In this document: positions 5,102 through 25,731 of the stretch, in pieces | Layout: every line of letters starts with the position of its first letter | How positions within the stretch are numbered: position 1 is the stretch's first letter | Program-made: the position numbers and the translations under genes | The notes under the pieces: model-generated | Told to the model about the DNA's origin: nothing | Seen by the model: the letters and a program-made list of their open reading frames with translations, nothing else | Databases searched by the model: none | Source of the DNA: a virus | DNA length: 37,707 bases | Direction: 5' to 3' (one strand) | Virus record (IMG/VR): IMGVR_UViG_3300045988_025481 | Span: 1-37,707 of that record

Positions 5102-5384
5102 AATTCTTGTCTAGATACGTTTCTTTTTCACTGCTTTTTCTTGGTGGTAAAACTGCGCTATACTTTTCTACTTCATCATACTTGTTCTTTATTCTTTTGA
5201 TGATTCTATTCACACTAGAAACACTCATATTTAATCTGTCGGCTTGTTCTCTGACTGTCCATCCGTATATTCTTGTTCTTAGAATCATTTCTTCATCTTT
5301 AGTTAATAAAGCTAGATTAATAAATTCTTCAAGAATAATCTTATTCCAAGGTACTTGATTCGTCATTGTCTTGTTCTTCGTCAA
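5100..5384 (-). CDS. sigma-70 region-4-like HTH regulator
   Basis: 94-aa ORF. EEMILRTRIYGWTVREQADRLNMSVSSVNRIIKRIKNKY resembles a region-4 HTH. It overlaps the holin 3' end by 44 nt. Confidence 0.5.
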   Translation of the reverse strand: MTKNKTMTNQVPWNKIILEEFINLALLTKDEEMILRTRIYGWTVREQADRLNMSVSSVNRIIKRIKNKYDEVEKYSAVLPPRKSSEKETYLDKN

Positions 5385-5856
5385 TAAGTTTATCTGCTAC
5401 TTCTAATCCTTTAGTTAATACTTTTGGTACATTGTAACCACATTGTAATAAATTCTCCATAACGCTACGAGATTCATTAATACATAGCGAAGCTAACACA
5501 AACCAACCTAGCAATGTAGACACATGGAAATCAATCCCTAGAATTTCTCCTACTTCTACTAAAAATGCACTGAATGTGAACGCAACCACAATCATAATCC
5601 AATAGCCTAGCTTTTTTAAAACACCGGTCCAACCTTTGTTGCTATTGATTTTATGAGCAATAGCCGACTTCATGCACCCTGTAATATAATCCACTACATT
5701 CATAAATAAGAAGAACGCAAATAAATACCAATGCTCGCCTAATACGTATGTTAATACGGCTACGGCAACACCACACATTGCATTAATCTTATCTAGAAAA
5801 AACATACTTCTTGCTATTTGCTTAAATCCTCCATTTTTATTTTCTATTAAATTCAC
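5341..5856 (-). CDS. holin (TcdE/phage_holin_4-type, toxin secretion/phage lysis family)
   Basis: Multi-TM ORF with DYITG...KK...INESRSVMEN motifs typical of that family. GTG 5856 sits inside the SD; ATA 5847 lies 8 nt after GGAG and is the better-placed start. Confidence 0.75.
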   Translation of the reverse strand: MNLIENKNGGFKQIARSMFFLDKINAMCGVAVAVLTYVLGEHWYLFAFFLFMNVVDYITGCMKSAIAHKINSNKGWTGVLKKLGYWIMIVVAFTFSAFLVEVGEILGIDFHVSTLLGWFVLASLCINESRSVMENLLQCGYNVPKVLTKGLEVADKLIDEEQDNDESSTLE

Positions 5857-5859
5857 TCC

Positions 5860-6873
5860 TTACATGATTTTTAAATTATCAACCTCTAATTCTAAGGTTC
5901 TATATCCACTCTTAATAACTTCAAATATATTTCTAATTCTTGCAGTTATTACTAGTCCAATTTCTGCTACTATAACATCAACTTTATCACCTAAATCATA
6001 GTCCACCTTATACTCGTATGAATCCGTATTTAAATTAAAATTCACATTCTCTTTAATTTGATAATCTGCTAGTTTTTCAATTCCTTTTTGAATTAACACC
6101 TTCTTATATTCATCAAGTGTTGTACCTTCTCCCATACGCTCAGAACGTGCGTCTACATACAATTTCTTGATTCTTTCATTCTTATCTTTTCTAGCGTCAT
6201 ATTCAACGTAAATACGCTCTTCGCCTTGCCCCTCTCCACAAATGATTGCATAGTTCTTGTATTTACTAGAATCAATCATAACGTCCGGTTCTTCAACATT
6301 TCTGAATTCTGTTGAAAAGGTAACAAAATTGTTTCCGTCTGTATTGTTTTGAGTCAAATCACGTCCTCGATACAATACAAATGTGAACGTACTTGATACA
6401 TAGTCATATTCTATGCGAAAAGACAATTCTAACGGATATAACATCTCATAAAGCTTCTTATCAAGGCTTGCTCCTGTTTCTTGTAAGTCTACGGTATCTG
6501 TAATGGATTCATCATATCTATACCCCATTTCCCATGAACAATACCTATCTAATAATTTCTTTACGACATCAACAATATTTCCACTGCTTGAGAATGTAGG
6601 ATAAATACAATCATCTGCTAGAATCTTTTCAAAGAAAGAACCTCTAAGCAACATTTGTTTAGTGTTGTTTGAAACCGAATAATGCGGTATTTCTACAATC
6701 CCTAACTCTTTATCCTCAGTAGAATAGATATATTGGATGTCGCTTGAATACTGCCCTATATCAATATAAATCTCGAAATCTCCTGTTTCATAATATCTCC
6801 GATTCCACTGCACGTTATAAGGTGCTAGATGAGTTACGATATTGAAATCTTTATCTAATCCAAAGTAAGACAT
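5860..6873 (-). CDS. tail tip/baseplate protein (siphovirus Gp37-like family)
   Basis: 337-aa ORF directly after Dit. The N-terminus (W.RRYYETGDFEIYID) resembles ReqiPepy6 Gp37-like proteins. Confidence 0.55.
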   Translation of the reverse strand: MSYFGLDKDFNIVTHLAPYNVQWNRRYYETGDFEIYIDIGQYSSDIQYIYSTEDKELGIVEIPHYSVSNNTKQMLLRGSFFEKILADDCIYPTFSSSGNIVDVVKKLLDRYCSWEMGYRYDESITDTVDLQETGASLDKKLYEMLYPLELSFRIEYDYVSSTFTFVLYRGRDLTQNNTDGNNFVTFSTEFRNVEEPDVMIDSSKYKNYAIICGEGQGEERIYVEYDARKDKNERIKKLYVDARSERMGEGTTLDEYKKVLIQKGIEKLADYQIKENVNFNLNTDSYEYKVDYDLGDKVDVIVAEIGLVITARIRNIFEVIKSGYRTLELEVDNLKIM

Positions 6874-6874
6874 A

Positions 6875-7747
6875 CTATATACCTAAATACCTTTCGTTGT
6901 AGTAAACAGTGCAAGCTAGGTTCGTATCTCCATTATCTGCCGTATATCCTATGATATTCTCACCTAAATTAATAGTCATATCATTGAATGATGAAGTTCT
7001 ATCAACTTTGCCAATACAATTCACGCCATTCTTCTTTATTGAAATAGGTTCAGAAACTAAATCGATTTCTAATACATCACCATTGTGTAACGTATCTAAT
7101 ACACGAATATATTTATCTTTATTGAATAGTTTCGGATTTGTCACATCTCCAAATGCTTCAATGACGGCCCTGCAATATGTTTCTGTATCACCTTGATTAT
7201 CAATATAAATTTCTCTAGCGAATGTGAATGTTCCAAAGTTTACGCCTGTTTCCGGTATTTCGAAATTAAATGCTAAACCACCGCCGATTTCTGCAATATT
7301 CTTTGCAAAATCATCAAATGAAAGTAATAAAGGTTGCGTGCATAGAATCGTAAAATTAAGCTCTAAATCTTTGTAGATGTTAACAGTAGGCAAGCTATAC
7401 GCATATAAACGACCTCTGCAATACTTCTTTTCTCCCATGTACTCAACTATCACATCAAATACATGAGAATATTGGAAGAAGCGCCGTAGCTTCTCCCTTT
7501 CTTCTCTTTTTTCTTCTAGTGAACCTTTAAAGATAGCTTTCACGCTTCTTTCTTTCGTTGGAATACGTGAACCGATTAATCTAGCACCATTTCCAAATGC
7601 GTTGTCTTGCGTAGTGTATGAAGGTGCTACATAATCAAATCCATCTAAGCCATCATTTGAAGGAATCCTCCATCTTTTTTGGTTGTCAATTTCAAATTCT
7701 GTGCCATCATCCCTACGGACAATAACTCTTACTTTATTGATGTCTAT
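6875..7747 (-). CDS. distal tail protein (Dit)
   Basis: ORF 6875..7543 extends 68 codons upstream with no ATG/GTG/TTG, to ATA 7747..7745 (GGAGG plus 9 nt). The ATA overlaps the TMP stop as ATAG. Position directly after the TMP supports the call. Confidence 0.75.
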   Translation of the reverse strand: MDINKVRVIVRRDDGTEFEIDNQKRWRIPSNDGLDGFDYVAPSYTTQDNAFGNGARLIGSRIPTKERSVKAIFKGSLEEKREEREKLRRFFQYSHVFDVIVEYMGEKKYCRGRLYAYSLPTVNIYKDLELNFTILCTQPLLLSFDDFAKNIAEIGGGLAFNFEIPETGVNFGTFTFAREIYIDNQGDTETYCRAVIEAFGDVTNPKLFNKDKYIRVLDTLHNGDVLEIDLVSEPISIKKNGVNCIGKVDRTSSFNDMTINLGENIIGYTADNGDTNLACTVYYNERYLGI

Positions 7748-13463: not shown

Positions 13464-14332
13464 TACTTAGCACTAGCAGATAAATAAATACCTGCTACCT
13501 TATTTGCGTATACATCAACGATTCCATACTTACGATATTTCAAAACATCTGAATCTGATTCAATGTTATTGCTTGCGGGAATCACATTTGAAACAGTGTG
13601 CTTATCCCATTTCATAACGGCAGGTTTATGAACAATTAAGAAGTTGATTACGTGTCCATCTTCTGCCTTTTCGTATCCACCTTCTAACTCTGTGTCTTTT
13701 CCGCTCAACAATTTGATTTTTGTATAGAAACGACTAGCAGGTACAGGAACAACTTTTGCGAATCCTTGTAAAGCTTCACGAGATTTGTAAGTGTCCAACG
13801 CCTTAACGCCATTTAATAATGTAGGTGTAGCATACAAGATACGTTGTTCGCTAGGAACTTCATCTTCATCCATTTTAGTAGTTGCCGTTAATAATGCGCT
13901 CAAGAACTCTTCTGAAGTTGTATAATCTTCGGCAACTGTTGTGATTCCTGTTGTGCCTGCAATCTTAGCGAATGTGTAAGCGTCTGCTTCCGGCGCAACC
14001 TTTGTACGCATTAATTCTGCTCCTGCCATACCGAATGCAATGTTCATTGATTCTGCGTTATCTTGTGTATCAACTGAGATTTTAGTACCTCGGTCATAGT
14101 CGAATGTAGCAGTTTTCCATTCTAACTTAACTGAGTTACCTGTATAACCACTGTTTCTATCGTAGTTTCCTAAACCTTTAACAGAAATTTGTGGATAGAT
14201 GATTTCTTTTGCGTTTGCTCCTGCTCGTACCATTGTAGCGTCTGCATTTAAATCACCTGTAACTGAAGCTAACTTATATACCTCATCCAAATTTGAGACA
14301 TACGTTTTAGCTAATGCAATTTCATTTGGTAT
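13463..14332 (-). CDS. major capsid protein
   Basis: ORF 13463..14290 extends 14 codons to ATA 14332..14330 (AAGGAGG plus 9 nt). The extension restores a typical ...Y.S.LDEVYK N-terminus. The gene follows the scaffold gene. Confidence 0.8.
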   Translation of the reverse strand: MPNEIALAKTYVSNLDEVYKLASVTGDLNADATMVRAGANAKEIIYPQISVKGLGNYDRNSGYTGNSVKLEWKTATFDYDRGTKISVDTQDNAESMNIAFGMAGAELMRTKVAPEADAYTFAKIAGTTGITTVAEDYTTSEEFLSALLTATTKMDEDEVPSEQRILYATPTLLNGVKALDTYKSREALQGFAKVVPVPASRFYTKIKLLSGKDTELEGGYEKAEDGHVINFLIVHKPAVMKWDKHTVSNVIPASNNIESDSDVLKYRKYGIVDVYANKVAGIYLSASAK

Positions 14333-14346
14333 TAATTAAATCCTCC

Positions 14347-14931
14347 TTATTTCTTTTCTGTAGTTAAGCCCATTGCCTGTCGTAGCAATAAATCTTCTGC
14401 ATTTGGGTTTGCTCCTTGCCCACTGCTTCCAACGATATTTCCTGTTGCAGTAGGTCCTTTCTGTTCTTCTTCAAATAAGATTGGCTTATTCTCTTTTAAT
14501 GTTTTAAAAGCTTTGTCAATATCATTTGTTTGGTCTTTTGAATTTAGTAAATCATCATAATTGAATTGTGATTTTGCTAAATCGAAATCTTTACATCCGT
14601 ATTCTTTAGCTTTTGCACTTAATACAGAATCAAGATTCATTTTGCTAATCTGAGCTTCGTAGTTTGTCTTTTGAGTATCAATATCATTCGTCAATGTATT
14701 GATTTTTTTTCTTAACTCTTCTACATCAACTCCATCATAGTTTTCCTTGAATTTATCAAACTTTGTTTGAATATCCTTTGCGTTGTTCTCTGCTAAAGAT
14801 AGCTTTTCTTTTTGCTTGTCAAACTCTGCAATCGTCTTATAGTTGTCATTTACTAGCTTTGTAACTGAGTCCTCTTGTTCTTCGGTTAATTCAATGTTTG
14901 ATTCTTTTAAAATTTCAATAATGTTTTTCAT
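14347..14931 (-). CDS. capsid scaffolding protein (DUF4355-like)
   Basis: 194-aa helical, charged ORF upstream of the MCP, with TTAGGAGGGCAC-ATG. Confidence 0.7.
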   Translation of the reverse strand: MKNIIEILKESNIELTEEQEDSVTKLVNDNYKTIAEFDKQKEKLSLAENNAKDIQTKFDKFKENYDGVDVEELRKKINTLTNDIDTQKTNYEAQISKMNLDSVLSAKAKEYGCKDFDLAKSQFNYDDLLNSKDQTNDIDKAFKTLKENKPILFEEEQKGPTATGNIVGSSGQGANPNAEDLLLRQAMGLTTEKK

Positions 14932-15000
14932 GTGCCCTCCTAAAGTCTTTTGTAAACCGAATCTTCTCCGGTATGGTATTGGCTAACTATATTTTAGCTT

Positions 15001-15023
15001 GAATAATAGCTCACAATGTGAGC
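15001..15023 (-). terminator. weak terminator-like palindrome GCTCACATTGTGAGC plus a T-rich tail
   Basis: 15-bp palindrome at 15009..15023, 3 nt after the stop of gene 15027..16208. The same motif recurs at 26221..26235. Confidence 0.35.
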
Positions 15024-15026
15024 GTT

Positions 15027-16208
15027 TTATCCGATTCTAAGCCTATCGTTGTGAACTCTATCTCCCATTTCAGAACTGAAAGCTTTATATACTGCATTTG
15101 CGTGTTTTAGCTTGATTTTGGCTTCTGTACTTCCTAGTCCTTGATTATCCAATAAGATTACTTCCCTTTTTAACGCTCTGATGTTTCTTTCTAATTCTCT
15201 TTGATACTGCCTAGCTTCATATCCTTCATATTCTTTTCCTTGGAATGTGAAAGGCTTTGTATCAATATTCTTTAACTGCTCTTTTGTGTAGGCATAAGGC
15301 ATATCAACATCCCAAACAGGTTGAGCAAAATGTCTACATCCATAATCTTTTTCTTCTCCATGCGTTAATTCATACAAGCTAGGATATAGTTTCCCTTGCG
15401 TATCATATCGCTTCCCTTGCCACTTCTTATGACTTGGACGTGCGTTTGCGTGAGCATCAAACTCGAATACAGTAACTCCTATATCTTTTGCGCATTTATT
15501 GTTGATTTCTTGTGATGATTCCTTTTCTGCGTACTGCATTTGTTGTCTCACCCATACATCCACATTTCTTTTCACGCCTGTATCATATTCCACAATCTTT
15601 ACACCACTATCCGCCAATTTAGAGATAGCTTTTCTACAAGAATCATCAATTGTGCATTTACCACCTAATACATTTTTAACTTCTTCTTGAACTACCTTTG
15701 TAAAGAATACCGGTAATTTATCTTTACCGATTGCATACGTGTTAGCACTTGTCTTGATGTATTTCTTCCAATGCTTTGATGTGTCATTTTGTGGACTGAT
15801 ATATAAATCCATTTTGAGCTTCTTTTTGATAGGTTTCCCGCTTGCTACTTCGATTAAATCAAGCGTTCCTTGCTTACTTTCTTCAAAATCCTTTTTAGAT
15901 TCCTTGATTACATCTTTTTTAAGGCTTTTTGATTCTTTTTTCGTAAATTTACGCAAATCTACGAGTGATTTTGCCAATATCTCATTAAATTTTGCATTTT
16001 CTTCGGTGCTTTTCTCTAAAACTTCACGAATTTTATTAGATACGAATATTATCATTCCTAATTCAAATACACTAGCACGCTTTACACTTTTTCTTTCTCT
16101 TTCTTCAAGTTTTCTTCTTTTCTCAATCTGTCTTTGTAGACGTTCTTGCTTCCTTTGTTGTTGCCTTTTTTCACGCTCTTGTTCCCTTTGCTCTTCTTCA
16201 CCTAACAT
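15027..16208 (-). CDS. minor capsid / head morphogenesis protein (SPP1 gp7 / Minor_capsid_2-like)
   Basis: 393-aa ORF upstream of the scaffold gene. The conserved C-terminal half (ARPSHKKWQGKRY...) resembles minor capsid proteins. Confidence 0.6.
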   Translation of the reverse strand: MLGEEEQREQEREKRQQQRKQERLQRQIEKRRKLEERERKSVKRASVFELGMIIFVSNKIREVLEKSTEENAKFNEILAKSLVDLRKFTKKESKSLKKDVIKESKKDFEESKQGTLDLIEVASGKPIKKKLKMDLYISPQNDTSKHWKKYIKTSANTYAIGKDKLPVFFTKVVQEEVKNVLGGKCTIDDSCRKAISKLADSGVKIVEYDTGVKRNVDVWVRQQMQYAEKESSQEINNKCAKDIGVTVFEFDAHANARPSHKKWQGKRYDTQGKLYPSLYELTHGEEKDYGCRHFAQPVWDVDMPYAYTKEQLKNIDTKPFTFQGKEYEGYEARQYQRELERNIRALKREVILLDNQGLGSTEAKIKLKHANAVYKAFSSEMGDRVHNDRLRIG

Positions 16209-16221
16209 TTATATACCCCCT

Positions 16222-16247
16222 ATAGAAAAAGGGCTTAAATGCCCTTT
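16222..16247 (-). terminator. terminator-like hairpin inside the late region
   Basis: Minus strand reads AAAGGGC-ATTTAA-GCCCTTT followed by TTCT. It lies between the XkdX-like gene and the minor capsid gene. Confidence 0.5.
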
Positions 16248-16263
16248 AAAACGCTTTTAATGC

Positions 16264-16383
16264 CTATTTAATTAATTCTTTTCTCTGAGTTTCTGTAATC
16301 CACCCAATAGATACAAACATTTCTAAATCGCTCTTTGTAAATAATCCTAATTCATAATACGATTTGATTAATTCATAACTCAT
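16264..16383 (-). CDS. xkdX: XkdX-family small protein
   Basis: Hand-translated 39 aa: MSYELIKSYYELGLFTKSDLEMFVSIGWITETQRKELIK. It matches the XkdX motif (Y..G.yt..d...fV..g.IT). Confidence 0.6.
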   Translation of the reverse strand: MSYELIKSYYELGLFTKSDLEMFVSIGWITETQRKELIK

Positions 16384-16384
16384 A

Positions 16385-16723
16385 CTACTTCACCCCATTC
16401 AATTGAACTTTTAATTGTGCAATCTGTAACATCAATTGTGCGTTAATCTTCTGTTGCTCGGTTGGTACTGCTTTCTCTTCGATTGTAGGTTTGTCTCCTT
16501 CTGCAACCTCAACCGCTTTACCTTCTACATATTTGTAGTTGTATCTACCATGTTCGTCAATTAATCCTTTTTCTAGATATTGACTTTGAGCATGCACGTA
16601 TTTATCGCCTTGCCCTTGGTCAATTTCTGTCATAGCTTGAATTTCTTCTTCTGATAAAAAGATTTCTGAATTAATAGATGTGATACATTTATCATCGTTC
16701 AATTTAACATATACCTTATACAT
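16385..16723 (-). CDS. XkdW-like / fibre-associated small protein, tentative
   Basis: 112-aa ORF directly before the XkdX-like gene. Confidence 0.4.
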   Translation of the reverse strand: MYKVYVKLNDDKCITSINSEIFLSEEEIQAMTEIDQGQGDKYVHAQSQYLEKGLIDEHGRYNYKYVEGKAVEVAEGDKPTIEEKAVPTEQQKINAQLMLQIAQLKVQLNGVK

Positions 16724-16738
16724 TCTTTTTGCTCCCTT

Positions 16739-17635
16739 CTATGCTGCGTAAATTTCTGCGTCCAATTCAATGTAGCCGTCTGTATCAAATACCAATGTAC
16801 AGTTTTGTGTGGTACTATCCGGTGCTAGTAATATTGTGATTTCGTTATAATTTGTTAATGAAATTTCTCCCACACTACTGAAATTATATTTTTTATAAGA
16901 AGCCCAATAATACAACCAAAAACTGCCAGCGCCTTTTATTGTCGGTTTAGTTCTCATATTTGATAGTTCATCACTAGATATATACGTTTGAGTTGTGAAA
17001 TAGCCATTTAATGATGCTTGTAATTGCTTGTAGTACATCATGCACTTCTGCAATTCTTCCGCGTAGTTTGGCGCAACATAAGTTGTAGCTTTACTACCTT
17101 TCTCTAATTTAATCCATTCAATCGTGATTGACGCTCCTTGCTTCAATTCGATACTTGCTTCATTTAATAAAGATAAAGTTACGGTGTTTAAACCTTTTAC
17201 AATCTTCTTCCCATTTGCTTGATTGTATAAATACGCATTACCTGTCACTGCCGTAATATTGCACGATAATGTGCACGTATCATTGATTGCGTGTTCTAAG
17301 ATTTGTTTAAACCACGAACTTGTATCAGTAGTAGCTAATGATGTGATTGTGGCCGTGCCATCAATATTGTATACTACCTCAGTATTAATGCTAATCCATC
17401 TATCTAGTGTATACGTTGGTTTCGTAGTATTGTTCGTGTACGTTCCACGTCCTCTTTGGTCAACTTTGAAATTCGAGTTAAGCAATAAATTTGGATTACT
17501 GAATCTTTCTGCAATGTAATCCATTAGTTGCGACAATGTACCTTTTTTTAATCCTGCTCCGTTATGAACTGGTAATAAGCTTGTATCCGTAAATGTAGGC
17601 AATGCGTCTAATTCTGTTACTTGTTTCCCTGCCAT
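16739..17635 (-). CDS. receptor-binding / tail-fibre-like protein
   Basis: ORF 16739..17683. The best start is ATG 17635 after AAGGAGGA plus 5 nt (MAGKQVTELDALP...). The NLLLNSNF...DRW pattern is typical of fibre tips. Confidence 0.5.
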   Translation of the reverse strand: MAGKQVTELDALPTFTDTSLLPVHNGAGLKKGTLSQLMDYIAERFSNPNLLLNSNFKVDQRGRGTYTNNTTKPTYTLDRWISINTEVVYNIDGTATITSLATTDTSSWFKQILEHAINDTCTLSCNITAVTGNAYLYNQANGKKIVKGLNTVTLSLLNEASIELKQGASITIEWIKLEKGSKATTYVAPNYAEELQKCMMYYKQLQASLNGYFTTQTYISSDELSNMRTKPTIKGAGSFWLYYWASYKKYNFSSVGEISLTNYNEITILLAPDSTTQNCTLVFDTDGYIELDAEIYAA

Positions 17636-17636
17636 G

Positions 17637-17882
17637 TTATTCCTCCTTGACTTTATATTTCCAATCCGTGCCAACTTCTCCACTTGCTACTTCATAAGAC
17701 CAATCGGCTAGGATTGCATTTCCTTTTTCATCTACTAATTCTTGAGCGCTTGTTGCGTTCAAATTCGTGGTAAAGTGGTTGTTCATCACCATTTGATTCA
17801 ATGCATTATGTGATGTGGTTACAGACTTTATTTTCGAGACAAGCCACTGAATAGAAGCTTTGTCTTTGAATACGAAAGCCAT
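17637..17882 (-). CDS. 81-aa protein duplicating the C-terminal module of gene 19054..19863
   Basis: MNNHFTT...LVDE.G...LADW.YEV.SGEVG.DW.YKVK is shared with the C-terminus of the 269-aa upstream protein. Confidence 0.6.
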   Translation of the reverse strand: MAFVFKDKASIQWLVSKIKSVTTSHNALNQMVMNNHFTTNLNATSAQELVDEKGNAILADWSYEVASGEVGTDWKYKVKEE

Positions 17883-17885
17883 ATA

Positions 17886-18449
17886 CTAACCCCACATAGT
17901 ATTTAAATCATTTGTAGTAATCGCAGTTAATTCTGACTTCTTAACATACGCCGATAAATCAATGTCTGTATTACCAATCTTTTCGTATGTCTTTGTCTCT
18001 GAAAGCCAAATATACTCATCATAGATATCTTGTGTTCCATGTGAATGTGCTACCAAATAAATTACACCATTTGAACCTGTAGCAGGTAAGCTCGTTACCT
18101 TTTCATATCTAATAGATGCAATGTTTCCTACTGCCGAATTAATCAACGATTGTACTTGTGATTGCGTTTGGAATCCATTGTCATTTGTTAATTGTGATAC
18201 CTTTGTAGGCACTGTAACATCCACGGCTTTTGAGCTTGGCGTTAATTTCGTACCATTTACCTTTACAGATTCAATCACATTCACTTGAGCACCACTTGCG
18301 ATACCACTTAATTTTTGCTTTTCTTCGCTTGTGTAGTCATTTGTTGATAAGCCTTTACCACTTACGGCATCAACTTTCCCACCTAACGCCGTTTTAATCT
18401 TACTGATTAAGAGTGTCAATCCACTCTTATCTAAATATTCAATAGCTAT
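17886..18449 (-). CDS. tail-fibre-like protein
   Basis: ORF 17886..18419 extends 10 codons to ATA 18449..18447 (TAGGAGG plus 8 nt). GKGLSTNDYTSEEKQKL and SQLTNDNGFQT are typical fibre repeats. Confidence 0.6.
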   Translation of the reverse strand: MAIEYLDKSGLTLLISKIKTALGGKVDAVSGKGLSTNDYTSEEKQKLSGIASGAQVNVIESVKVNGTKLTPSSKAVDVTVPTKVSQLTNDNGFQTQSQVQSLINSAVGNIASIRYEKVTSLPATGSNGVIYLVAHSHGTQDIYDEYIWLSETKTYEKIGNTDIDLSAYVKKSELTAITTNDLNTMWG

Positions 18450-18461
18450 TCTTTTTTCCTC

Positions 18462-18761
18462 CTATAGACTATTCCATAATTCATCTAGTTCGGTTGTTGA
18501 TACACATGTTACAGAACCTTCTGCCATAGCTCCAACATCTTCCGGAGTATATACCGGTCTTGTTTCTGCTTTTGCCCACGTTGGAACTGTTGGGTCTATT
18601 TCTTCAACCTCTCCAATGATTTCATTACCATTTAATTTAGGTTTGTTCTTTAGCTTGTTGTAATCACTTGTACCTTCAACAAACTTCTCATCTGAGATTT
18701 CAATTTGAAGCTTGTCTGATTCATCTTGTATATTCATTTGAATATCTTGCATTAGAATCAT
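18462..18761 (-). CDS. fibre-associated protein (DYNKLKNKPKLNG motif)
   Basis: 99-aa ORF with AAGGAAGTG plus 5 nt upstream of the ATG. Confidence 0.5.
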   Translation of the reverse strand: MILMQDIQMNIQDESDKLQIEISDEKFVEGTSDYNKLKNKPKLNGNEIIGEVEEIDPTVPTWAKAETRPVYTPEDVGAMAEGSVTCVSTTELDELWNSL

Positions 18762-19057
18762 GTAATCACTTCCTTATTCAATACTCTATATACCTTTGTT
18801 GTCTTGACAGGAGAAGCAACAGCAACTCCTCCTTTTGTAATCATTCTTAATTGAATATTACAAGTACCCTCTTTGAAATTGAGCGTTTCTTCTTGACTTA
18901 ACAACACTGAAATAACATTTCCTTCAATGTCTAAATCACTTGATTCTTTTTTTAAGATATATCCGTTCTGTTCAAATACCACATAGATATTCTGCATTTC
19001 ATTTAAATCAATATCGTTTATTGTGATTTGAATTGTTGGCGTAGTTCCTTGTCTCAT
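18758..19057 (-). CDS. small structural-module protein
   Basis: ORF 18758..19078. The best start is ATG 19057 (AAGGTG plus 5 nt; ATGA overlap): MRQGTTPTIQITI... Confidence 0.5.
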   Translation of the reverse strand: MRQGTTPTIQITINDIDLNEMQNIYVVFEQNGYILKKESSDLDIEGNVISVLLSQEETLNFKEGTCNIQLRMITKGGVAVASPVKTTKVYRVLNKEVIT

Positions 19058-19863
19058 GATTTCACCTTGTAAGTCCAATCTTTGCCTACTTCACCCGACT
19101 CAACTTCATACGCCCAATCGGCTAGCATTTCATGACCGTTCTCATCTACCAGTGTTCCATCTTCTGTTAATAGAATCGTAGTGAAATGGTTATTCATAAG
19201 CATTTGTTCTACATTTGCAATTCGGTTCATTAACTTACCTGCGGTATTTGAATCCAACGTATCTTTTACGCTTGCGAACCATTCATTGAATTCATTTTCA
19301 TTTGCACTCATTTCAGATTGATTCTGCTCTTTTACTTCTTTGAATAATTCGGTCATTTGTGTAAATAAATCTAATGTTTCAACACTCTTTATGGCATTTG
19401 TAACTACTCCACAACGTGTTGAATCTAACCTTGTATCAGTGATGTTTGAGCCTTTGATTTCACTTGCGTTTCCTTCCACTGTTACCGTAGCTAATACCAT
19501 ATCATAAATAGAACCGCTTCTTGTGATTCCATCGTTGGTGTCGCTTGCTAATAAGGTAATGTTTCTATATGTGTCATTGTCATTCAATCTAAGAATAATA
19601 TTGTAGCTTTTAGTAGCGTTATTCTTTTCTAATGTGATGGTTTCGTCGTCTTTCTGCCAATAGAATGCTCCGTTAATATTTGCTCGTCCTGCCTTAACTG
19701 TAAGTGTTAAGCCTTGAGCCTTTTCAACTCTCAAATGGTCTGAACTAGAATCATCTATGAATACGCCATTTGTAAAGTAGCTTGAGAATAGCTTTCTGAA
19801 AGCGTCATATAAGACTAATCTATCACCATTTCGTGAGACAAATGGAAAATATGTAGTTGCTAT
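19054..19863 (-). CDS. fibre/baseplate-like structural protein
   Basis: ORF 19054..19734 extends 43 codons with no canonical start, to ATA 19863..19861 (GAGGGGGA plus 9 nt). The ATA overlaps the portal stop as ATAG. The FPFVSRNGDR...ITDTRLDSTRCGVV pattern resembles phage fibre proteins. Confidence 0.6.
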   Translation of the reverse strand: MATTYFPFVSRNGDRLVLYDAFRKLFSSYFTNGVFIDDSSSDHLRVEKAQGLTLTVKAGRANINGAFYWQKDDETITLEKNNATKSYNIILRLNDNDTYRNITLLASDTNDGITRSGSIYDMVLATVTVEGNASEIKGSNITDTRLDSTRCGVVTNAIKSVETLDLFTQMTELFKEVKEQNQSEMSANENEFNEWFASVKDTLDSNTAGKLMNRIANVEQMLMNNHFTTILLTEDGTLVDENGHEMLADWAYEVESGEVGKDWTYKVKS

Positions 19864-21263
19864 TCTTCGTCATCCCCCTCTCCATCATCTTGAATTTCTT
19901 CATTCAACAATTCCGTTGCTTCTTCTTCAGTGAAGCCGTATTGCTTCATGAAATACATAATCTTTAATCTTGGAATATCAAATGTTAATGCGTCATTTCT
20001 TAACGCTTGTGCCGTGCTTTGCTTATCCTCGATATATGTATCATCATAATCAATAGCAATATCTAATGAATTGATATTAAGCTTTCTGCCTTGTGTCAAT
20101 TCGTAGAAGTATGCAATAGCTTGAATAATGTCTTGAATATATGCAGTAGATTCTTTACGTTGTGAGTTTACTTCCTTCATAGCGTCTTGATTCTCACCAA
20201 TATATTCTGTAGCCGTCACAATTCTTCCACTTTCAAAGGTGTATTTCTTTGTACCAAATCCAAACATCATTGATAAGATACTTAATGCAGTTTCTAGTGA
20301 TTGCACAACTTCCGCCGTTCTTACTGTTGGATTGTATTCTTGCCATAAAGCTTTTTCTTCCGGAAGCTTGTCTCTACCTAACTGAACAAATATCTTTTTC
20401 ATTTGTGGATTCATCTTAATATTTCCATCCTTGTCTTTCTGCATTAATGCTTCATTCACAAGAACAATTTTATCAGACTTCAACAAATCACGATTCCACA
20501 TTGTCATTGTTAAATCAATTGTTTTCAAAGGAGCAATTGCACTCCAAATCTTCGGCAAGCCGTACCCTTGCATTTGTAAGTTGTTGACCTTTGCATTTCT
20601 CATAATTGCAAACGGCTTAACCACATCTAATTGAACTATCTGAGCACGCTCTTTTATTTCTTCGCCTGTATCTTTAAAGTAATGTGTTTCTGCAATATAT
20701 CTTTCGTCTTGTCCTTTTAAGAACATGACCATCACATATACTTTTTTCAACTTCTCATAATTTACTCCAACGAAAGCTACTTCCACAATTTCATCATTGA
20801 TAACAGTTAATGGAAGGATATTCATTGAATCACAATAGTTGATTCTTATTTCCCCTCCACTGAATGTACCATCTTCGTAAATCTCGGCATTTGATACCGT
20901 TACATAAGCTCCTACTGTACCGTTTGCAGACATTTGCTCAACTTGTTTCCTATACATTACATCAAACCTATTCTTCGTTAGAATGTCTGAAATAATATCA
21001 TTTGTTGTACTGTCCTCTGTTGCGTTTATATCTAGGATTTCAATAAGGTTTGCGTCATCCTCGCATAAACGCTTTGCAAAGTCTGTTTTATCTAGCGTGT
21101 ATTCCTCGTTGTTCAACGTGTATGCCGTATGAAATTCTGTTTCGGTATTCGTGTACCACTTATTACACAATTCAATAATCTCAATTGCGTTTGTGTCTAC
21201 ATAATACCCTCTGTCGTTTAGGTAATTCTGAAACCACGGTCTACGTGTGTTAGATGTTTCTAT
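19860..21263 (-). CDS. portal protein (SPP1 Gp6-like)
   Basis: ORF 19860..21170 extends 31 codons to ATA 21263..21261 (AAGGAGG plus 6 nt), two codons after an in-frame TAA. Its size and position after TerL support the call. Confidence 0.8.
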   Translation of the reverse strand: METSNTRRPWFQNYLNDRGYYVDTNAIEIIELCNKWYTNTETEFHTAYTLNNEEYTLDKTDFAKRLCEDDANLIEILDINATEDSTTNDIISDILTKNRFDVMYRKQVEQMSANGTVGAYVTVSNAEIYEDGTFSGGEIRINYCDSMNILPLTVINDEIVEVAFVGVNYEKLKKVYVMVMFLKGQDERYIAETHYFKDTGEEIKERAQIVQLDVVKPFAIMRNAKVNNLQMQGYGLPKIWSAIAPLKTIDLTMTMWNRDLLKSDKIVLVNEALMQKDKDGNIKMNPQMKKIFVQLGRDKLPEEKALWQEYNPTVRTAEVVQSLETALSILSMMFGFGTKKYTFESGRIVTATEYIGENQDAMKEVNSQRKESTAYIQDIIQAIAYFYELTQGRKLNINSLDIAIDYDDTYIEDKQSTAQALRNDALTFDIPRLKIMYFMKQYGFTEEEATELLNEEIQDDGEGDDEE

Positions 21264-21266
21264 TTC

Positions 21267-22604
21267 TTACCTCCTTAAATCTATATATCCACTATGGGTT
21301 ATAAATGTGTAGCAGAACGAATCCCAATCATCATTGATATTGTTTACGTTCTCATCTTTCGGAATGTCTTTCTTTTCATCCCATACCAATTCGCTCAATG
21401 CATTTATTAAGTTCTTACAATGTTCTTCTATCTTCAATCTACCTGTAACAAGTAAGCTATCAACTGTTATAGGACGGTCCGTTAGCTCATTCTTCTTAAC
21501 CGGTGCAATTATACTACCGTCCAATCCTTCGGCGTAGAAATAAGCTCTAAGCGTGTTTATGAGTGTGTTAGAAGCACTGTCCGGAAATATCCATTCTACA
21601 TATCCGTAACATTCAATACAACGCTTATAGAATCTTACAAATGCTTTGCAGAACTTTGTTGCGTATATGGAATTAGATTTAGCCATGTCTCCTTCATCAA
21701 GTGCCCACATATAATCCCAATCATTTGTAAACCCTGTTAAGTGCCATGAATATTTCGAGCCATTGTCTCCAAAATCAACGCCAATAATTAAATGACTGAA
21801 CCTTTTCCCTTCTTCCTTCATCTTTTCTTTTAGACTCTGATATTTGAATAGGTAAGGCTTGCAGTTATTGGCAAAATAAGGAAAGACTAGACCTTCGGCA
21901 ACCATTCTTTCCCCTAAAATATCTCGCTTGTACCATACTGAATTCTTGTCATATTTGTTTTGGATTTCTTCGATTCTTTCTTGGCTCATTGTAGCATTGT
22001 CAAAGATGTTGAAGTGCTCATATCTGTACCAATCTAACCCCATAAATTTATCTATGTAATTCTTATAGATGTCTGCGTTTGGGTTTGATGGGTTTAAATC
22101 CCATAATGTAAATGGATGTACACTTGCAATCTGTCTTGCCATCGCTACCTTGATAAAGCTTGTTCTAGAATCATCACAATCGTAATGCTCATTTATTTCG
22201 GTCGCTATCCATCCACCATATGAGTTACCTAATATGCTCTTATATGAATCGGACTTTCCACCGCCTGTAAATATAACTATCTTTTCGCCTGTCTTTGTTT
22301 GGACAAATAGTGCTTCGTTCGATTTGTATTTACCCCAACGACACCGCCCACGAAAGATATGTTCTAAGCCGAAACCATTGCAATCGCCTATGTTTAATTT
22401 CGCATTTGGTAAGCTTGACCCACTCGCTAAATGTATTTTATCTTCGCATGTTTCTAAATACATTGAAAAGATTATGCAGTGGTCAATCGTTTTGCCACTT
22501 CGTACCGCTCCTTCTGCTACACTTTGTTTGTAATTTAGGGCGGTCTTAATATAATTCTTATGTTTATCTGAAAATTTCCCCCAAGGAATCGTTCTAGTCA
22601 TCAT
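21267..22604 (-). CDS. terL: terminase large subunit
   Basis: 445-aa ORF with Walker A EGAVRSGKT, PBSX/Terminase_3-like. The ATG overlaps the TerS stop. Confidence 0.9.
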   Translation of the reverse strand: MMTRTIPWGKFSDKHKNYIKTALNYKQSVAEGAVRSGKTIDHCIIFSMYLETCEDKIHLASGSSLPNAKLNIGDCNGFGLEHIFRGRCRWGKYKSNEALFVQTKTGEKIVIFTGGGKSDSYKSILGNSYGGWIATEINEHYDCDDSRTSFIKVAMARQIASVHPFTLWDLNPSNPNADIYKNYIDKFMGLDWYRYEHFNIFDNATMSQERIEEIQNKYDKNSVWYKRDILGERMVAEGLVFPYFANNCKPYLFKYQSLKEKMKEEGKRFSHLIIGVDFGDNGSKYSWHLTGFTNDWDYMWALDEGDMAKSNSIYATKFCKAFVRFYKRCIECYGYVEWIFPDSASNTLINTLRAYFYAEGLDGSIIAPVKKNELTDRPITVDSLLVTGRLKIEEHCKNLINALSELVWDEKKDIPKDENVNNINDDWDSFCYTFITHSGYIDLRR

Positions 22605-22942
22605 TTTAATAAATCTGCCAAAGGTGTTAAGTCCTCAATCTCATGTGTCATTGTCTGCTCAACCTTTTCGCTCTGTCCAAGCATTTGTTTACCTAACCAA
22701 ATAAGCATGGTCGTATTCCCTTTTGACGCTTTGTCAAATTGCATACGTCTTAAACTTCTTTTTGAGTGGCTTATACCTTTTTTATATGTCTGACAAAACT
22801 TTCTATTTCTTAATAATGTTCTTACCGAACATCCTAGGAAATCTGCAATTTCTTCTTGAGTACATCCAATAGAAGCAAGCTTTTCAACTGCTTCATAATC
22901 AATCTTTATTCTTGGGCGTCCTCCTGCGTGTTTCTCTGCTAT
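22601..22942 (-). CDS. terS: terminase small subunit (HTH)
   Basis: Not in the ORF track. The frame is open from TAG 22957 to TGA 22601 and encodes (M)AEKHAGGRPRIKIDYEAVEKLASIGCTQEEIADFLGCSVRTL... The first ATG is 66 codons in. ATA 22942..22940 lies 6 nt after a G7 run. Confidence 0.7.
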   Translation of the reverse strand: MAEKHAGGRPRIKIDYEAVEKLASIGCTQEEIADFLGCSVRTLLRNRKFCQTYKKGISHSKRSLRRMQFDKASKGNTTMLIWLGKQMLGQSEKVEQTMTHEIEDLTPLADLLK

Positions 22943-23094
22943 TTTAATCCCCCCCTATAACAATCATATTGATTCAATTGCTTTTTAAGCCTTTGTAATC
23001 TTTTTCTTAAATCTCTTTTTCTATATTCTGATGTCGTGTTTTCTAATTCTTCTTCAACGCTTTTCATTTGGCGTAAATGTTCTTCTCTAGACAT
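22939..23094 (-). CDS. 51-aa coiled-coil ORF ending at the G7 tract
   Basis: Hand-translated: MSREEHLRQMKSVEEELENTTSEYRKRDLRKRLQRLKKQLNQYDCYRGGLK. It overlaps the radical SAM stop. It could fuse to TerS by a -1 shift on the G7 run. Confidence 0.35.
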   Translation of the reverse strand: MSREEHLRQMKSVEEELENTTSEYRKRDLRKRLQRLKKQLNQYDCYRGGLK

Positions 23095-24394
23095 GTCTTG
23101 CTTCTTCTGTTTCAAGTTCTGTAATCTCCTCTGTTCTTTTTAAGAATGTTACTGAATTATCATATTCGTAAATGATGTCATTGTTTTCATCAAATCCTAC
23201 AGGCTTTAGAACCTTTTCAAAAATCTTATAAGGTGATTGTCCTGCTTTTGGTGAATTCCATAAATAATGAAGATAATCTTTCATTGTCATTCCTTTGAAT
23301 TTTGCTCTATTCTCTGATGAATTAGTGTTGAACCCAATAGCTTTATTAAATTGAAAATCTAAGAAATACATATCCTTTTCAATATCTTTCCAATGTACTC
23401 TTCCATGTTTCTTTGCAATTTGTAAAGCGCCACTAAAATTTCCTCTTGAGTAATCCCAATTCTTGTCTAATGCGCAACAACAACAATTATTTGAGCATTC
23501 TTTAAAGTGTGCGTCGGATACATAGAATCGCATACCTAATTCATCACATAGCTCTTTCATCTTTTGAATGTATTTAGCCTTTACTTTTCTGTTAAGTCTT
23601 AAATATCCACTTCCATTTGAATGTTTTCTATAGAAATCTACAATATCAAATCCTGCACATTCACTAATCACATCATAATGCTCCTTAGCTTGTTTAATAG
23701 AACGCATTTCTAAGCAAAAGAACTCCGTAGTAACTGCCGTTGCTCCTGCCTTTTTGGCTTCTCTAATTAAATCTAGATAGGTTTTATCTGATACTCCTAC
23801 AATAAATGGACGCAATCTTAAAGTTGCACCACCTTTAGATAGTTCAGTATATTTTTTCATTGCTTCAAGTCTTTTTCTTGGACTTGGCACACCTACTTCG
23901 ATTTTTCTTGCGTCCTCTTCATCTAGCGTGATGATACTAAACTTAACATTCCAATTGTCTGCGCCTTTGAACAATTCTTGATATTTAGGGTCATTAAATA
24001 CCCATGCCGATTTCGTACTAAAACAAATAGGATAGTTAATAGATTTCAAATACTTAAGCATTTCATAGGTTTTGCCATATTTCTTTTCGTATCCGTCGAA
24101 TTGGTCTGATAATCCACCATATTGAATAGGACGTCTGTCTTTAATGTATTTATAGAATTGTGATTTTGTATCTTCTCCACTGAAAATCTTTTTGCATTTC
24201 TCAACATTGATACATTTCACATCTTTATTAAGATATGCTTCTTTACTTGCACCAATACCTCTTTGATATTGGCTAAAACAATAAACGCACCCAAATGAAC
24301 AATTGGAATATGTATCAAATGTCACCGGTAATGAGCAATCTGCGATTTCTCCTGTCCATCTCGGTGATTGATATGTCTCACTGATTTTATTCAC
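23087..24394 (-). CDS. radical SAM enzyme (SplB/COG1533-like), substrate unknown
   Basis: 435-aa ORF with the CX3CX2C motif CSFGCVYC near the N-terminus and a second Cys cluster CSNNCCCC. GTG start after GGAGGATATAAG. Confidence 0.75.
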   Translation of the reverse strand: MNKISETYQSPRWTGEIADCSLPVTFDTYSNCSFGCVYCFSQYQRGIGASKEAYLNKDVKCINVEKCKKIFSGEDTKSQFYKYIKDRRPIQYGGLSDQFDGYEKKYGKTYEMLKYLKSINYPICFSTKSAWVFNDPKYQELFKGADNWNVKFSIITLDEEDARKIEVGVPSPRKRLEAMKKYTELSKGGATLRLRPFIVGVSDKTYLDLIREAKKAGATAVTTEFFCLEMRSIKQAKEHYDVISECAGFDIVDFYRKHSNGSGYLRLNRKVKAKYIQKMKELCDELGMRFYVSDAHFKECSNNCCCCALDKNWDYSRGNFSGALQIAKKHGRVHWKDIEKDMYFLDFQFNKAIGFNTNSSENRAKFKGMTMKDYLHYLWNSPKAGQSPYKIFEKVLKPVGFDENNDIIYEYDNSVTFLKRTEEITELETEEARHV

Positions 24395-24395
24395 C

Positions 24396-25157
24396 TTATA
24401 TCCTCCATTTTCTTTTCAACAATACTGTTCTATCTTTTTTTGTTACCATATCCGGATATTTCTTTACTAGGCGTCTAAGCCATAGTTCTTGTTCTCCTCT
24501 TTGGTATCTGTCATACATTCCGCCTTTTTCCTTTCCCATTAAAGATTTATTTGGCACAATGTTATTTGCTCTAGCTATGATATACCCTTGCCTAATCATT
24601 CTTAGATTCAATTCATAATCCTCTAACATATCCCATTTCTCATCAAATTTGATTTCTTCACTTTTAATAACAAAACACAATCCACCTTGTACGAGTGTAT
24701 TGAATGAATATGTTTCACCTTTCTTAACATAGCTAGCTATATTCATATTATTGGTTGTGGGTAGACATCCCATGAAGTGAATATTGTTCTTTTGCATAAA
24801 TGAGAATACCTCATTAAATGTCTTATCCAATTCAGTGATTTTTTTCTGCGCTCCACATTTATTTCCTTGCTTTTCTTCCCATTTCCTAAAATCTCTGATG
24901 TCATCATCTAGTAAGATGATTTTTGCCCCATTTTCAAAATAATTTAGAATGTTATTTCTATTCGAAGCTACGTTATTTCCACGCCTAGTAATGATTTGAG
25001 CTTGACTTCCTAATGTTTCAACATAAGTTTTGAAATCATTTGAATCATTTAAGCTAATAACAATTCTTTCATCTTCAATTCCACATTCTTTTAGTGCGTA
25101 ATACGTTTTACATTTTGGTCTATGGTAACTAGCTATTGCATAATAGATGTTATTCAT
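24396..25157 (-). CDS. GT-A-type glycosyltransferase-like protein
   Basis: 253-aa ORF with a Rossmann-like N-terminus and the DXD motif ILLDDDIRD. Confidence 0.5.
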   Translation of the reverse strand: MNNIYYAIASYHRPKCKTYYALKECGIEDERIVISLNDSNDFKTYVETLGSQAQIITRRGNNVASNRNNILNYFENGAKIILLDDDIRDFRKWEEKQGNKCGAQKKITELDKTFNEVFSFMQKNNIHFMGCLPTTNNMNIASYVKKGETYSFNTLVQGGLCFVIKSEEIKFDEKWDMLEDYELNLRMIRQGYIIARANNIVPNKSLMGKEKGGMYDRYQRGEQELWLRRLVKKYPDMVTKKDRTVLLKRKWRI

Positions 25158-25731
25158 GCATTAATTCCTCGATGTCGTAGCACACTTTCAATTCAGTTAC
25201 CTGCAATAGTTTCTCTAAGAATAGTTGTTCTTCCTCTGTTTCATATGTAATGATTACACGTTGCTTTTTTAGCATATCTTCTGAATGTTCGCTAAATGCG
25301 TCCATAAGCTCGTTGTCATATCCTTCTGCATCCATGTCCTCAGTTAATGCACTAATTTCAAAATCGCCGAATCCGAATTCTCTCATATCGATTCCGTCAA
25401 TTTCTTCAAGCTCTTCCATTTCTGTTTTTAATGCGTCTAAATCCCAAGACGCTTTTTCTGCCGTTTTATTATCTGCAATTCTAAATGCTTTTACTTGCTC
25501 ATCTGTTAAATCATCTGCAACCACGCAAGGAACAGTTTCTAAGCCTAATTCTTGACTAGCTTTATATCGTGTATGACCTGCAACAATCACTCCATTTTTA
25601 TCAATAACAATAGGCACTTTGAAGCCGAATTCCTCAATAGAATTTTTAACAAATTTCACTGCTCCATCATTGATTCTAGGATTATTCTCATAAGGTTTTA
25701 GCTCATTTAATCTTTTTTCAACAATATTCAT
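25150..25731 (-). CDS. ParB N-terminal (ParB/Srx) domain protein
   Basis: 193-aa ORF. L.PYENNPR...IVIDKNGVIVAGHTRYKA...VPCVV is the ParBc motif. The C-terminus is acidic and there is no methyltransferase domain. Confidence 0.75.
   Translation of the reverse strand: MNIVEKRLNELKPYENNPRINDGAVKFVKNSIEEFGFKVPIVIDKNGVIVAGHTRYKASQELGLETVPCVVADDLTDEQVKAFRIADNKTAEKASWDLDALKTEMEELEEIDGIDMREFGFGDFEISALTEDMDAEGYDNELMDAFSEHSEDMLKKQRVIITYETEEEQLFLEKLLQVTELKVCYDIEELMHE

Follow-up and report, generated by a model that had tools for sequence, protein, structure and literature searches.

An adhesion-type gene module between the portal and minor capsid genes in a clade of gut siphophages

Why should a phage have genes which resemble tail fibre genes among its head genes? 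In siphophages of Gram-positive bacteria the genes which determine host range are usually found by their position, as the gene or genes that follow Tal. The IMG/VR virus record IMGVR_UViG_3300045988_025481 has a different arrangement. We call the window the whole stretch of DNA analysed, positions 1 to 37,707 of that record. It is the genome of a temperate siphophage, a gut prophage, which is read on the minus strand in the order integrase, early genes, terS/terL, portal, an eight-gene module, minor capsid protein 2 (mincap2), scaffold, major capsid protein (MCP), tail genes, tape measure protein (TMP), Dit, Tal, holin and lysin. The module consists of eight co-oriented open reading frames (ORFs), named here A, B, C, D, E, F, G and XkdX. 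They are found at 16264–19863 on the minus strand, between the stop of the portal gene at 19860 and the start of the Phage_min_cap2 gene at 16208. An earlier inspection of the letters, which we will call the sequence-only reading, had counted seven genes, one too few. It left two alternatives: either the receptor-binding genes have been relocated into the head module, or they code for head or neck fibres. We consider, with a probability of about 80%, that the eight genes are a tail-tip host-adhesion device: a cassette which has moved, or has been re-acquired, into the portal–mincap2 junction and has left behind a bare core of TMP, Dit and Tal.

We will start with the tail module. TMP has the PF10145 domain and the consecutive genes after it are of the SPP1_Dit and Sipho_Gp37 types, the core of a siphophage tail tip. 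Dit (6875–7747, minus strand; PF22768, E 2.4e-11) is likely to have 290 aa from an ATA codon at 7747, not 222 aa from the GTG at 7543; the N-terminal extension has a strong Shine-Dalgarno (SD) sequence and is homologous to the N-termini of Dit in two other phages, L048 and L053. Tal, a protein of 337 aa (5860–6873, minus strand; PF14594, E 5.4e-37), is the last gene of the tail module. There is no fibre gene in this module of the window: TMP, Dit and Tal are directly followed by the holin (5341–5847, minus strand; PF05105, E 3.2e-31), which occupies the place where other phages have genes of type A. Tal and holin are also adjacent in 27 of the 27 relatives, paired by contig name, whose contigs reach the holin. 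The sequence-only reading had stated that the tail module stops at a 337-aa Gp37-like protein and runs straight into the holin; this is borne out in the window and in all the paired relatives. The eight-gene module is the sole set of adhesion-type genes in the genome.

The same arrangement is found in the close relatives. The portals of 38 IMG/VR contigs are 96–99% identical to that of the window, and a module of 2.2–4.6 kb is present in all 34 contigs which have a complete portal-to-mincap2 interval. The junction ATAG, in which the stop codon TAG of the portal overlaps the start codon ATA of gene A, recurs in a contig whose portal is 84% identical. The portal cluster has 1,406 member sequences. 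One could think of an assembly chimera, or of an unused insertion carried as a moron-like passenger, given that there is a hairpin at the edge of the module and that it resembles the cassette of an unrelated phage, as described below. However, the module is seen in dozens of independent assemblies (IMG/VR, ENA, Logan, NCBI), all its reading frames are intact, gene F has diversified in contrast with the conserved genes on the flanks, and no other adhesion-type genes are available to the phage. An origin of this kind is extremely unlikely.

Outside the clade the gene order is different. A homologue of A is found directly downstream of Dit-Tal in every lineage examined (at least 16 loci), and the displaced order appears in no locus. 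Gene A of the window has the N-terminal homology of these genes, but not their position downstream of Dit-Tal. Two sister lineages have collinear and homologous structural modules, in which the portal overlaps mincap2 and an A-type N-terminus comes after Tal. In one of them, L094, the identity with the window is 62% for the portal, 53% for MCP, 49% for Dit and 42% for Tal; in the other one, L095, a prophage of Amedibacillus sp. YH-ame6, the values are 55%, 69%, 50% and 40%. The nearest named prophage relative is in Amedibacillus sp. In L048 and L049 A is also found after Tal; the portal of L048 is directly before mincap2/MuF, and for L049 this is read from the order of the genes after mincap2. 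In L001 the portal is directly before mincap2 or MuF, and in MT837573 MuF comes directly after the portal.

These lineages bear on the question whether the order in the window is simply the normal or ancestral one for such phages, so that nothing has moved. It is indeed common to all 34 close relatives in which the interval is complete and to the contig with the 84% identical portal, but the nearest outgroups with collinear modules (L094, L095, L048, L049 and L001) have portal and then mincap2/MuF. The first four also have A after Tal, so that an ancestral order is very unlikely. Comparison of gene order with related phages had been proposed in the sequence-only reading: the displaced order is found only in the immediate clade, with portals at least 84% identical, and not in related phages generally.

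Other phages have the same genes in the usual place. Outside the clade the closest gene A is that of L059: its product is 64% identical, with no difference in the first 15 residues. The gene comes after a Tal which is 48% identical to that of the window and before a homologue of B. L040–L042 have all eight genes, unchanged in order, immediately behind Tal. Their identities with the window are 43% for A, 46% for B, 51% for C, 68% for D, 88% for E, 45–76% for F and 75–79% for G. These phages are otherwise unrelated: they have an SU10-type MCP, and their Dit and Tal are only 26–28% identical to those of the window. Their cassette is like that of the window in gene order, in the duplicate of the A C-terminus (gene E), in XkdX and in a hairpin after XkdX; it is unlike it by its canonical place after Tal and by an A which starts with ATG. 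Dit-Tal-A is also found in eight of nine further prophages from Clostridia genomes, while in the ninth only TMP and Dit are seen upstream. Genes of type A directly after Tal are present as well in Lactococcus phages 50101, r1t and LC3, in Clostridioides difficile phiCD6356, in Paenibacillus and Butyrivibrio phages and in Acutalibacter phage Fontainebleau. The synteny in relatives, sister lineages, L059, L040–L042 and prophages shows that the Dit-Tal-A linkage is general and that the clade of the window is the exception. In the open-access text of the literature we have found no precedent for the order portal–module–mincap2. A module of a known kind is here fixed, throughout an abundant clade, at a genomic position not reported before. 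A megablast search of window positions 14000–23000 against the phage collection gave no match, and a portal scan of genome contigs gave no relative.

Gene A (19054–19863, minus strand; 269 aa), the putative anchor or adaptor fibre protein, matches phrog_1220 in a PHROG profile search (E 1.1e-43 over residues 3–232). Its AlphaFold2 (AF2) model has an N-terminal beta-sandwich of the receptor-binding protein (RBP) type, at about residues 30–155, then a long stalk of helices and, at the C-terminus, a small domain. The core of the sandwich is confident, with a predicted local distance difference test score (pLDDT) of 86–95 over about residues 40–150. Foldseek matches of the model in PDB are the tail fibre of cyanophage A-1(L), SPP1 gp22, a phi812 baseplate protein, Mtd of a Bordetella phage and the 80alpha baseplate. 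In BFVD there are 60 matches at E≤0.001, the best one at 5e-28; the best-ranked named matches are mainly called 'Receptor Binding Protein', with some minor tail proteins and tail fibers. No head protein is found among the fold matches in either database. A tblastn search with gene A has matches in 164 phage records: they include the RBP-annotated proteins of Lactococcus phages 50101, 86501 and 63301, and others annotated as baseplate, tail or structural proteins. None of the PDB sequence searches with A, F, D and G had a significant match, and a profile of gene A homologues has only a weak PDB match (E 0.36), with an 'RBP' chain. As judged from the model, gene A is of the receptor-binding-protein-type fold class, which is shared with tail fibres and baseplate proteins. 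It does not resemble BppU: there is no Pfam BppU_N domain, no PDB sequence match with either the single sequence or the profile, and BppU is absent among the top Foldseek matches in PDB.

Let us now consider the second alternative, that the module codes for head or neck fibres (collar or whiskers) attached near the portal, so that gene position would mirror the site of assembly. The module adjoins the portal, with overlapping stop and start codons; gene E and the C-terminus of A have a weak match with phrog_25620, 'tail collar fiber' (E 1e-6 to 7.5e-5; gene E itself 7.5e-5); and phrog_1220, the family of gene A, is labelled 'head protein'. This label looks like a propagated misannotation. It has been copied into RefSeq records (e.g. 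NC_004302, NC_031040 and NC_015262) for genes which are directly after Tal and which in the original GenBank records are called RBP, baseplate or structural protein. The label is misleading, since members of the family adjoin Tal and the fold of gene A has the matches given above. Head or neck fibres are also contradicted by the fact that A homologues, as well as the whole cassette in L040–L042, are always after Dit-Tal in other lineages, and that gene A matches only tail fibre, RBP and baseplate proteins. Furthermore the tail would be left without any adhesion device. Homologues among standard head-decoration proteins, which the sequence-only reading had named as a refutation of its view, do not appear: the eight proteins have no head-decoration or head-fibre family in Pfam, and there is none in the PDB and BFVD fold matches of gene A. 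Head fibres of phi29 (gp8.5) and lactococcal neck passage structures (NPS) have in common with the module only the idea of a fibre on head or neck and the weak match of E with 'tail collar fiber'; neither Pfam on the eight proteins nor the fold search of A gave any sequence or fold similarity with head-fibre proteins. For these reasons we consider head or neck fibres an unlikely explanation.

Co-variation of proteins gives another comparison. The pairwise divergence of residues 1–160 of A tracks that of Tal (rho 0.49, Mantel p 0.0015) and Dit (rho 0.46, p 0.0035), whose genes are 13 kb away, but not that of the adjacent portal (rho 0.06, p 0.34), which also speaks against fibres anchored near the portal. 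This co-variation of the N-terminal domain of A with Tal and Dit suggests a contact at the tail tip, but it is modest and not decisive. Several points weigh against a tail-tip device. Without the outlier L030 the values fall to 0.39 for Tal and 0.33 for Dit, to be compared with 0.29 for MCP and 0.26 for mincap2, and the portal varies too little for a fair comparison. The tail-tip placement is deduced from the genes, and gene position can mislead in both directions: in Lactococcus phage 50101 the tail-tip cluster contains a gene with the annotation neck passage structure. The 'tail collar fiber' match of gene E and the A C-terminus should also be counted here. Finally, the AF2 model of gene F is poor (pLDDT 40, with only homologues at least 81% identical), so that the putative receptor-binding role of F rests on its PHROG match and on its variability.

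A related case is that of a cassette which has been re-purposed as an adhesion apparatus on the neck or collar, standing on the portal-connector, the N-terminal domain of A having been retargeted from Dit/Tal to the neck. It would represent a siphophage with a bare Dit-Tal tip, whose first binding to the host takes place via neck fibres. We find it quite improbable. Relocation of receptor-binding genes into the head module, the first alternative of the sequence-only reading, is the one supported by synteny, by the sister lineages and by the fold of gene A.

The other genes of the module have variable features. Gene B (18758–19057, minus strand; 99 aa; phrog_15594, E 1.5e-20) is a small protein confined to the long form of the module. 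It is 95–99% conserved in 21 relatives, and its homologue follows A in L059 and L040. Gene C (18462–18761, minus strand; 99 aa) carries the motif DYNKLKNKPKLNG; in P0047 an A-type protein ends in a fused copy of it. Gene D (17886–18449, minus strand; 187 aa; phrog_24103, E 4e-25) is fibre-shaft-like, with the motifs GKGLSTNDYT..EEKQKL and SQLTNDNGF and weaker matches with tail and tail-fibre PHROGs. The tail-fibre motifs quoted in the sequence-only reading are all present: GKGLSTNDYTSEEKQKL and SQLTNDNGF in D, the motif of C just given, and NPNLLLNSNF...LDRW in F.

Gene E (17637–17882, minus strand; 81 aa) is a free-standing paralogue of the C-terminal domain of A. The two are related by a direct repeat of 89 nt (17647–17735 and 19061–19149, 74% identical) and cross-match in tblastn. 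D and E together span 813 nt (17637–18449), as compared with 810 nt for A (19054–19863). The context of the ATA start, AAGAATAGC, and the C-terminal domain both recur at the same spacing of 1414 nt (repeat families D1 and D8). From sequence, D–E has the look of an A-type paralogue that has been split in two and differs in its N-terminal part.

Gene F (16739–17635, minus strand; 298 aa) is the hypervariable distal protein and probably the receptor-binding head; its C-terminal end matches phrog_4492, 'tail fiber protein' (E 1.8e-15). The last two genes had been described as an XkdW/XkdX-like pair. The second one is a true XkdX (16264–16383, minus strand; 39 aa), with 35.3 bits in PF09693 as compared with a cutoff of 23.5 (E 1.2e-8). 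Gene G (16385–16723, minus strand; 112 aa; phrog_24451, E 9e-28) resembles XkdW by position only: it occupies the place of XkdW in PBSX, but it matches no Pfam family at E≤0.01, and among PDB sequences there is no relevant match. In PBSX the genes XkdV-XkdW-XkdX close a late operon, and the lysis genes come next. As in the window, an XkdX gene closes the cluster after a gene of about 110 aa, but G has no detectable similarity with XkdW and the cluster of the window precedes head genes. An equivalent pair, gp20 and gp21, follows the fibre gene of C. difficile phiCD6356.

The module is far more variable than its surroundings. Among relatives the median identity is 98% for the portal, 95.5% for MCP and 93% for mincap2, while it is 41% for gene F (range 37–83%, taken among relatives whose portals are 96–99% identical). 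Gene F behaves as would be expected for a host-range determinant. In the 34 complete intervals the order A-B-C-D-E-F-G-X, where X is XkdX, is found in 17, plus one locus with a partial E. Another 13 have A-F-G-X, in some cases with additional DNA between A and F, which can encode a collagen-like protein of 687 aa, once with a GDSL esterase domain. The remaining three have a gene A with a collar-type C-terminus and unrelated genes, without F, G or X. In the long form gene E is always directly upstream of F: whatever the architecture, F comes either after the C-terminal domain of gene A or after its free copy E. This constant neighbourhood suggests that the C-terminal domain of A may be the docking partner of F.

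Two of these loci may be described here. At the portal–mincap2 site of L002 (11308–14450) there is a variant of A with the collar-type C-terminus, which has PF21939-bearing relatives, together with the 687-aa collagen-like protein. In L021 (12093–14156) the 687-aa collagen-like protein ends in a GDSL/SGNH esterase domain (E 4e-12). Such domains are typical of enzymes which modify surface polysaccharides.

The peripheral baseplates of Gram-positive siphophages have a core formed by a Dit hexamer and a Tal trimer, which hold trimeric anchors bearing separate receptor-binding heads (PMC12917162). The cassette of the window may follow the same logic, as in baseplates of the TP901-1, Tuc2009 and NF5 type, where BppU and either an RBP or side fibres are placed on Dit. 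Gene A would trimerise and dock by its N-terminal beta-sandwich on the Dit/Tal hub, with Dit as the proposed platform. The distal proteins would be held by its helical stalk together with its C-terminal domain, or by E, the free copy of that domain, with F as a variable and exchangeable receptor-binding head. B, C and D might form an optional second branch, while G and XkdX could be conserved accessory or assembly factors. The window differs from the TP901-1, Tuc2009 and NF5 systems since gene A has neither BppU_N nor a significant PDB sequence match, since docking on Dit is inferred here, and by the location of the genes.

A closer parallel is given by phages r1t, phiLC3 and 50101 of the Lactococcus P335 group, which have the order Dit-Tal-RBP-NPS-holin and, like the window, a hub of Dit and a short Tal. 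Their RBP-type proteins are 30–31% identical to gene A over about 220 N-terminal residues. However, their RBP gene overlaps the end of Tal. In the window the overlap of A is with the portal end, at a distance of about 13 kb upstream from Tal, and the Lactococcus phages do not share the distal parts B to G and XkdX. Since tails assemble independently of heads, relocation would be neutral for assembly and gene position would have no effect on the destination of the proteins. The cassette would be transcribed with the late operon.

If the position of this cassette is interpreted correctly, an abundant clade of gut phages, with a portal cluster of 1,406 sequences, breaks the rule that adhesion genes are found after Tal. 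Annotation by position, host prediction and designs for RBP swapping would miss the adhesion genes of this clade, or call them 'head protein'. The clade is also a natural test of the importance of gene order in late operons: an adhesion cassette works inside the block of head genes and still evolves as a hotspot where genes are swapped in and out, with at least four architectures.

We will now describe the two ends of the module. The 5' neighbour is the portal (19860–21263, minus strand; phrog_533, E 9.7e-54). The joint is at the start codon of gene A, where the window has GAAGAAT|AGCAACT. The sister lineage L094 has ATGAAT|AGCGATA before its A, and GAAGAAT|GAGG in the overlap of portal and mincap2. 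A crossover at the GAAT microhomology is a plausible, although speculative, route for the relocation. A frameshift fusion of portal and A was rejected: there is no slippery site, an in-frame TGA is found 3 codons upstream and the L059 homologue has ATG at the same residue.

The 3' neighbour is minor capsid protein 2, involved in head morphogenesis (15027–16208, minus strand; PF06152, E 3.5e-35). In the spacer between XkdX and mincap2 there is a terminator-like hairpin with a U-tract (16222–16247, minus strand; hairpin 16228–16247, with the stem formed by 16241–16247 and 16228–16234). Its stem of 7 bp, with 4 GC pairs, has -10 kcal/mol by itself and is followed by UUUUUCU; it is conserved in relatives. 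In L040–L042 a hairpin is also found after XkdX, with a different sequence. The module-ending hairpin of the sequence-only reading is therefore real, but as a terminator it is weak at best. A consensus terminator scan did not call it, and it competes with another fold (-12.8 kcal/mol), in which its 3' arm and the U-tract pair with the SD sequence and the start codon of mincap2. Essential head genes are found downstream. The two folds of the spacer (16205–16252) are mutually exclusive. Among relatives (L002–L039) the loop of the hairpin has two reverse-complement versions, ATTTAA and TTAAAT, and the first 23 residues of mincap2 also occur in two versions.

The start of gene A leads to a second subject. 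The sequence-only reading placed the edge of the module at 19863, which is an ATA codon acting as the start of A. We have scored start sites by an SD match of at least 6 nt, with a start-like codon 4–12 nt later and an ORF of at least 60 codons. In the window these strong sites have 22 ATG, 3 GTG, 10 ATA and 1 ATT, so that 10 of 36 are ATA. Genes which start with ATA include the portal, MCP (289 aa), the major tail protein, TMP (859 aa), Dit (290 aa), the holin and the lysin (580 aa). The first bases of the ATA codons on the minus strand are 22909, 21263, 19863, 18449, 14332, 12581, 11791, 10323, 7747, 5847, 2730 and 26740. The portal is likely to start at ATA 21263 (467 aa) and not at the first TTG, 21170 (436 aa): it has a strong SD, AAGGAGGT, 5 nt before the ATA, and starts with ATA in 43 related loci.

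Comparison among phages gives a consistent picture. Gene A starts with ATA in 39 of 39 genomes, and in 38 of 38 when relatives are counted; in L059 the codon at that position is ATG. Gene D, which has ATA in the window, has among relatives ATA in 15 cases and ATG in 4 of 19, always at the same position. For the holin, some relatives have ATA and others ATG, at one and the same position, and MCP has ATG in L048 and L049. The N-terminal extensions implied by the ATA starts are homologous to the N-termini of homologues which start with ATG. The trait is shared by the sister lineages, with 6 of 14 sites in L094 and 5 of 16 in the Amedibacillus prophage L095; it is absent in L040 (0 of 19) and L041 (0 of 18), and rare elsewhere. 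ATA thus appears to be a routine start codon in this phage group. We have found no report of ATA starts in bacteria or phages in the open-access text of the literature.

Two other explanations were rejected. ATA is not a deliberate device for low expression of gene A, as it also starts the major capsid gene. A sequencing error at a modified base can be discarded too, as internal ATG codons are read normally and ATA is also found in a prophage from an isolate genome. Routine ATA starts imply that the host initiates well on AUA, and point to an unusual recognition of start codons in it. Standard gene callers truncate genes which start with ATA, about a quarter of those with a strong SD; gene A, for example, comes out with 236 aa. 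This lead may merit more attention than the displaced module.

Some further features of the genome can be mentioned. The window has no tRNA, and the domains of its lysin resemble most those of Streptococcus phage lysins. In L002–L039, with portals 96–99% identical, terL has two alleles, either 97–99% or about 64–68% identical to that of the window. Two alleles next to nearly identical portals indicate a recombination boundary between terL and portal. Just upstream of the small ORFs before terL there are three consecutive genes (23087–25731, minus strand), a region which varies among relatives. They code for a ParB_N-domain protein (25150–25731, minus strand), a protein of the TET-associated glycosyltransferase family (24396–25157, minus strand; PF20691, E 4.5e-12) and a protein of 435 aa with a weak radical-SAM match (23087–24394, minus strand). 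This trio may be a DNA hypermodification cassette.

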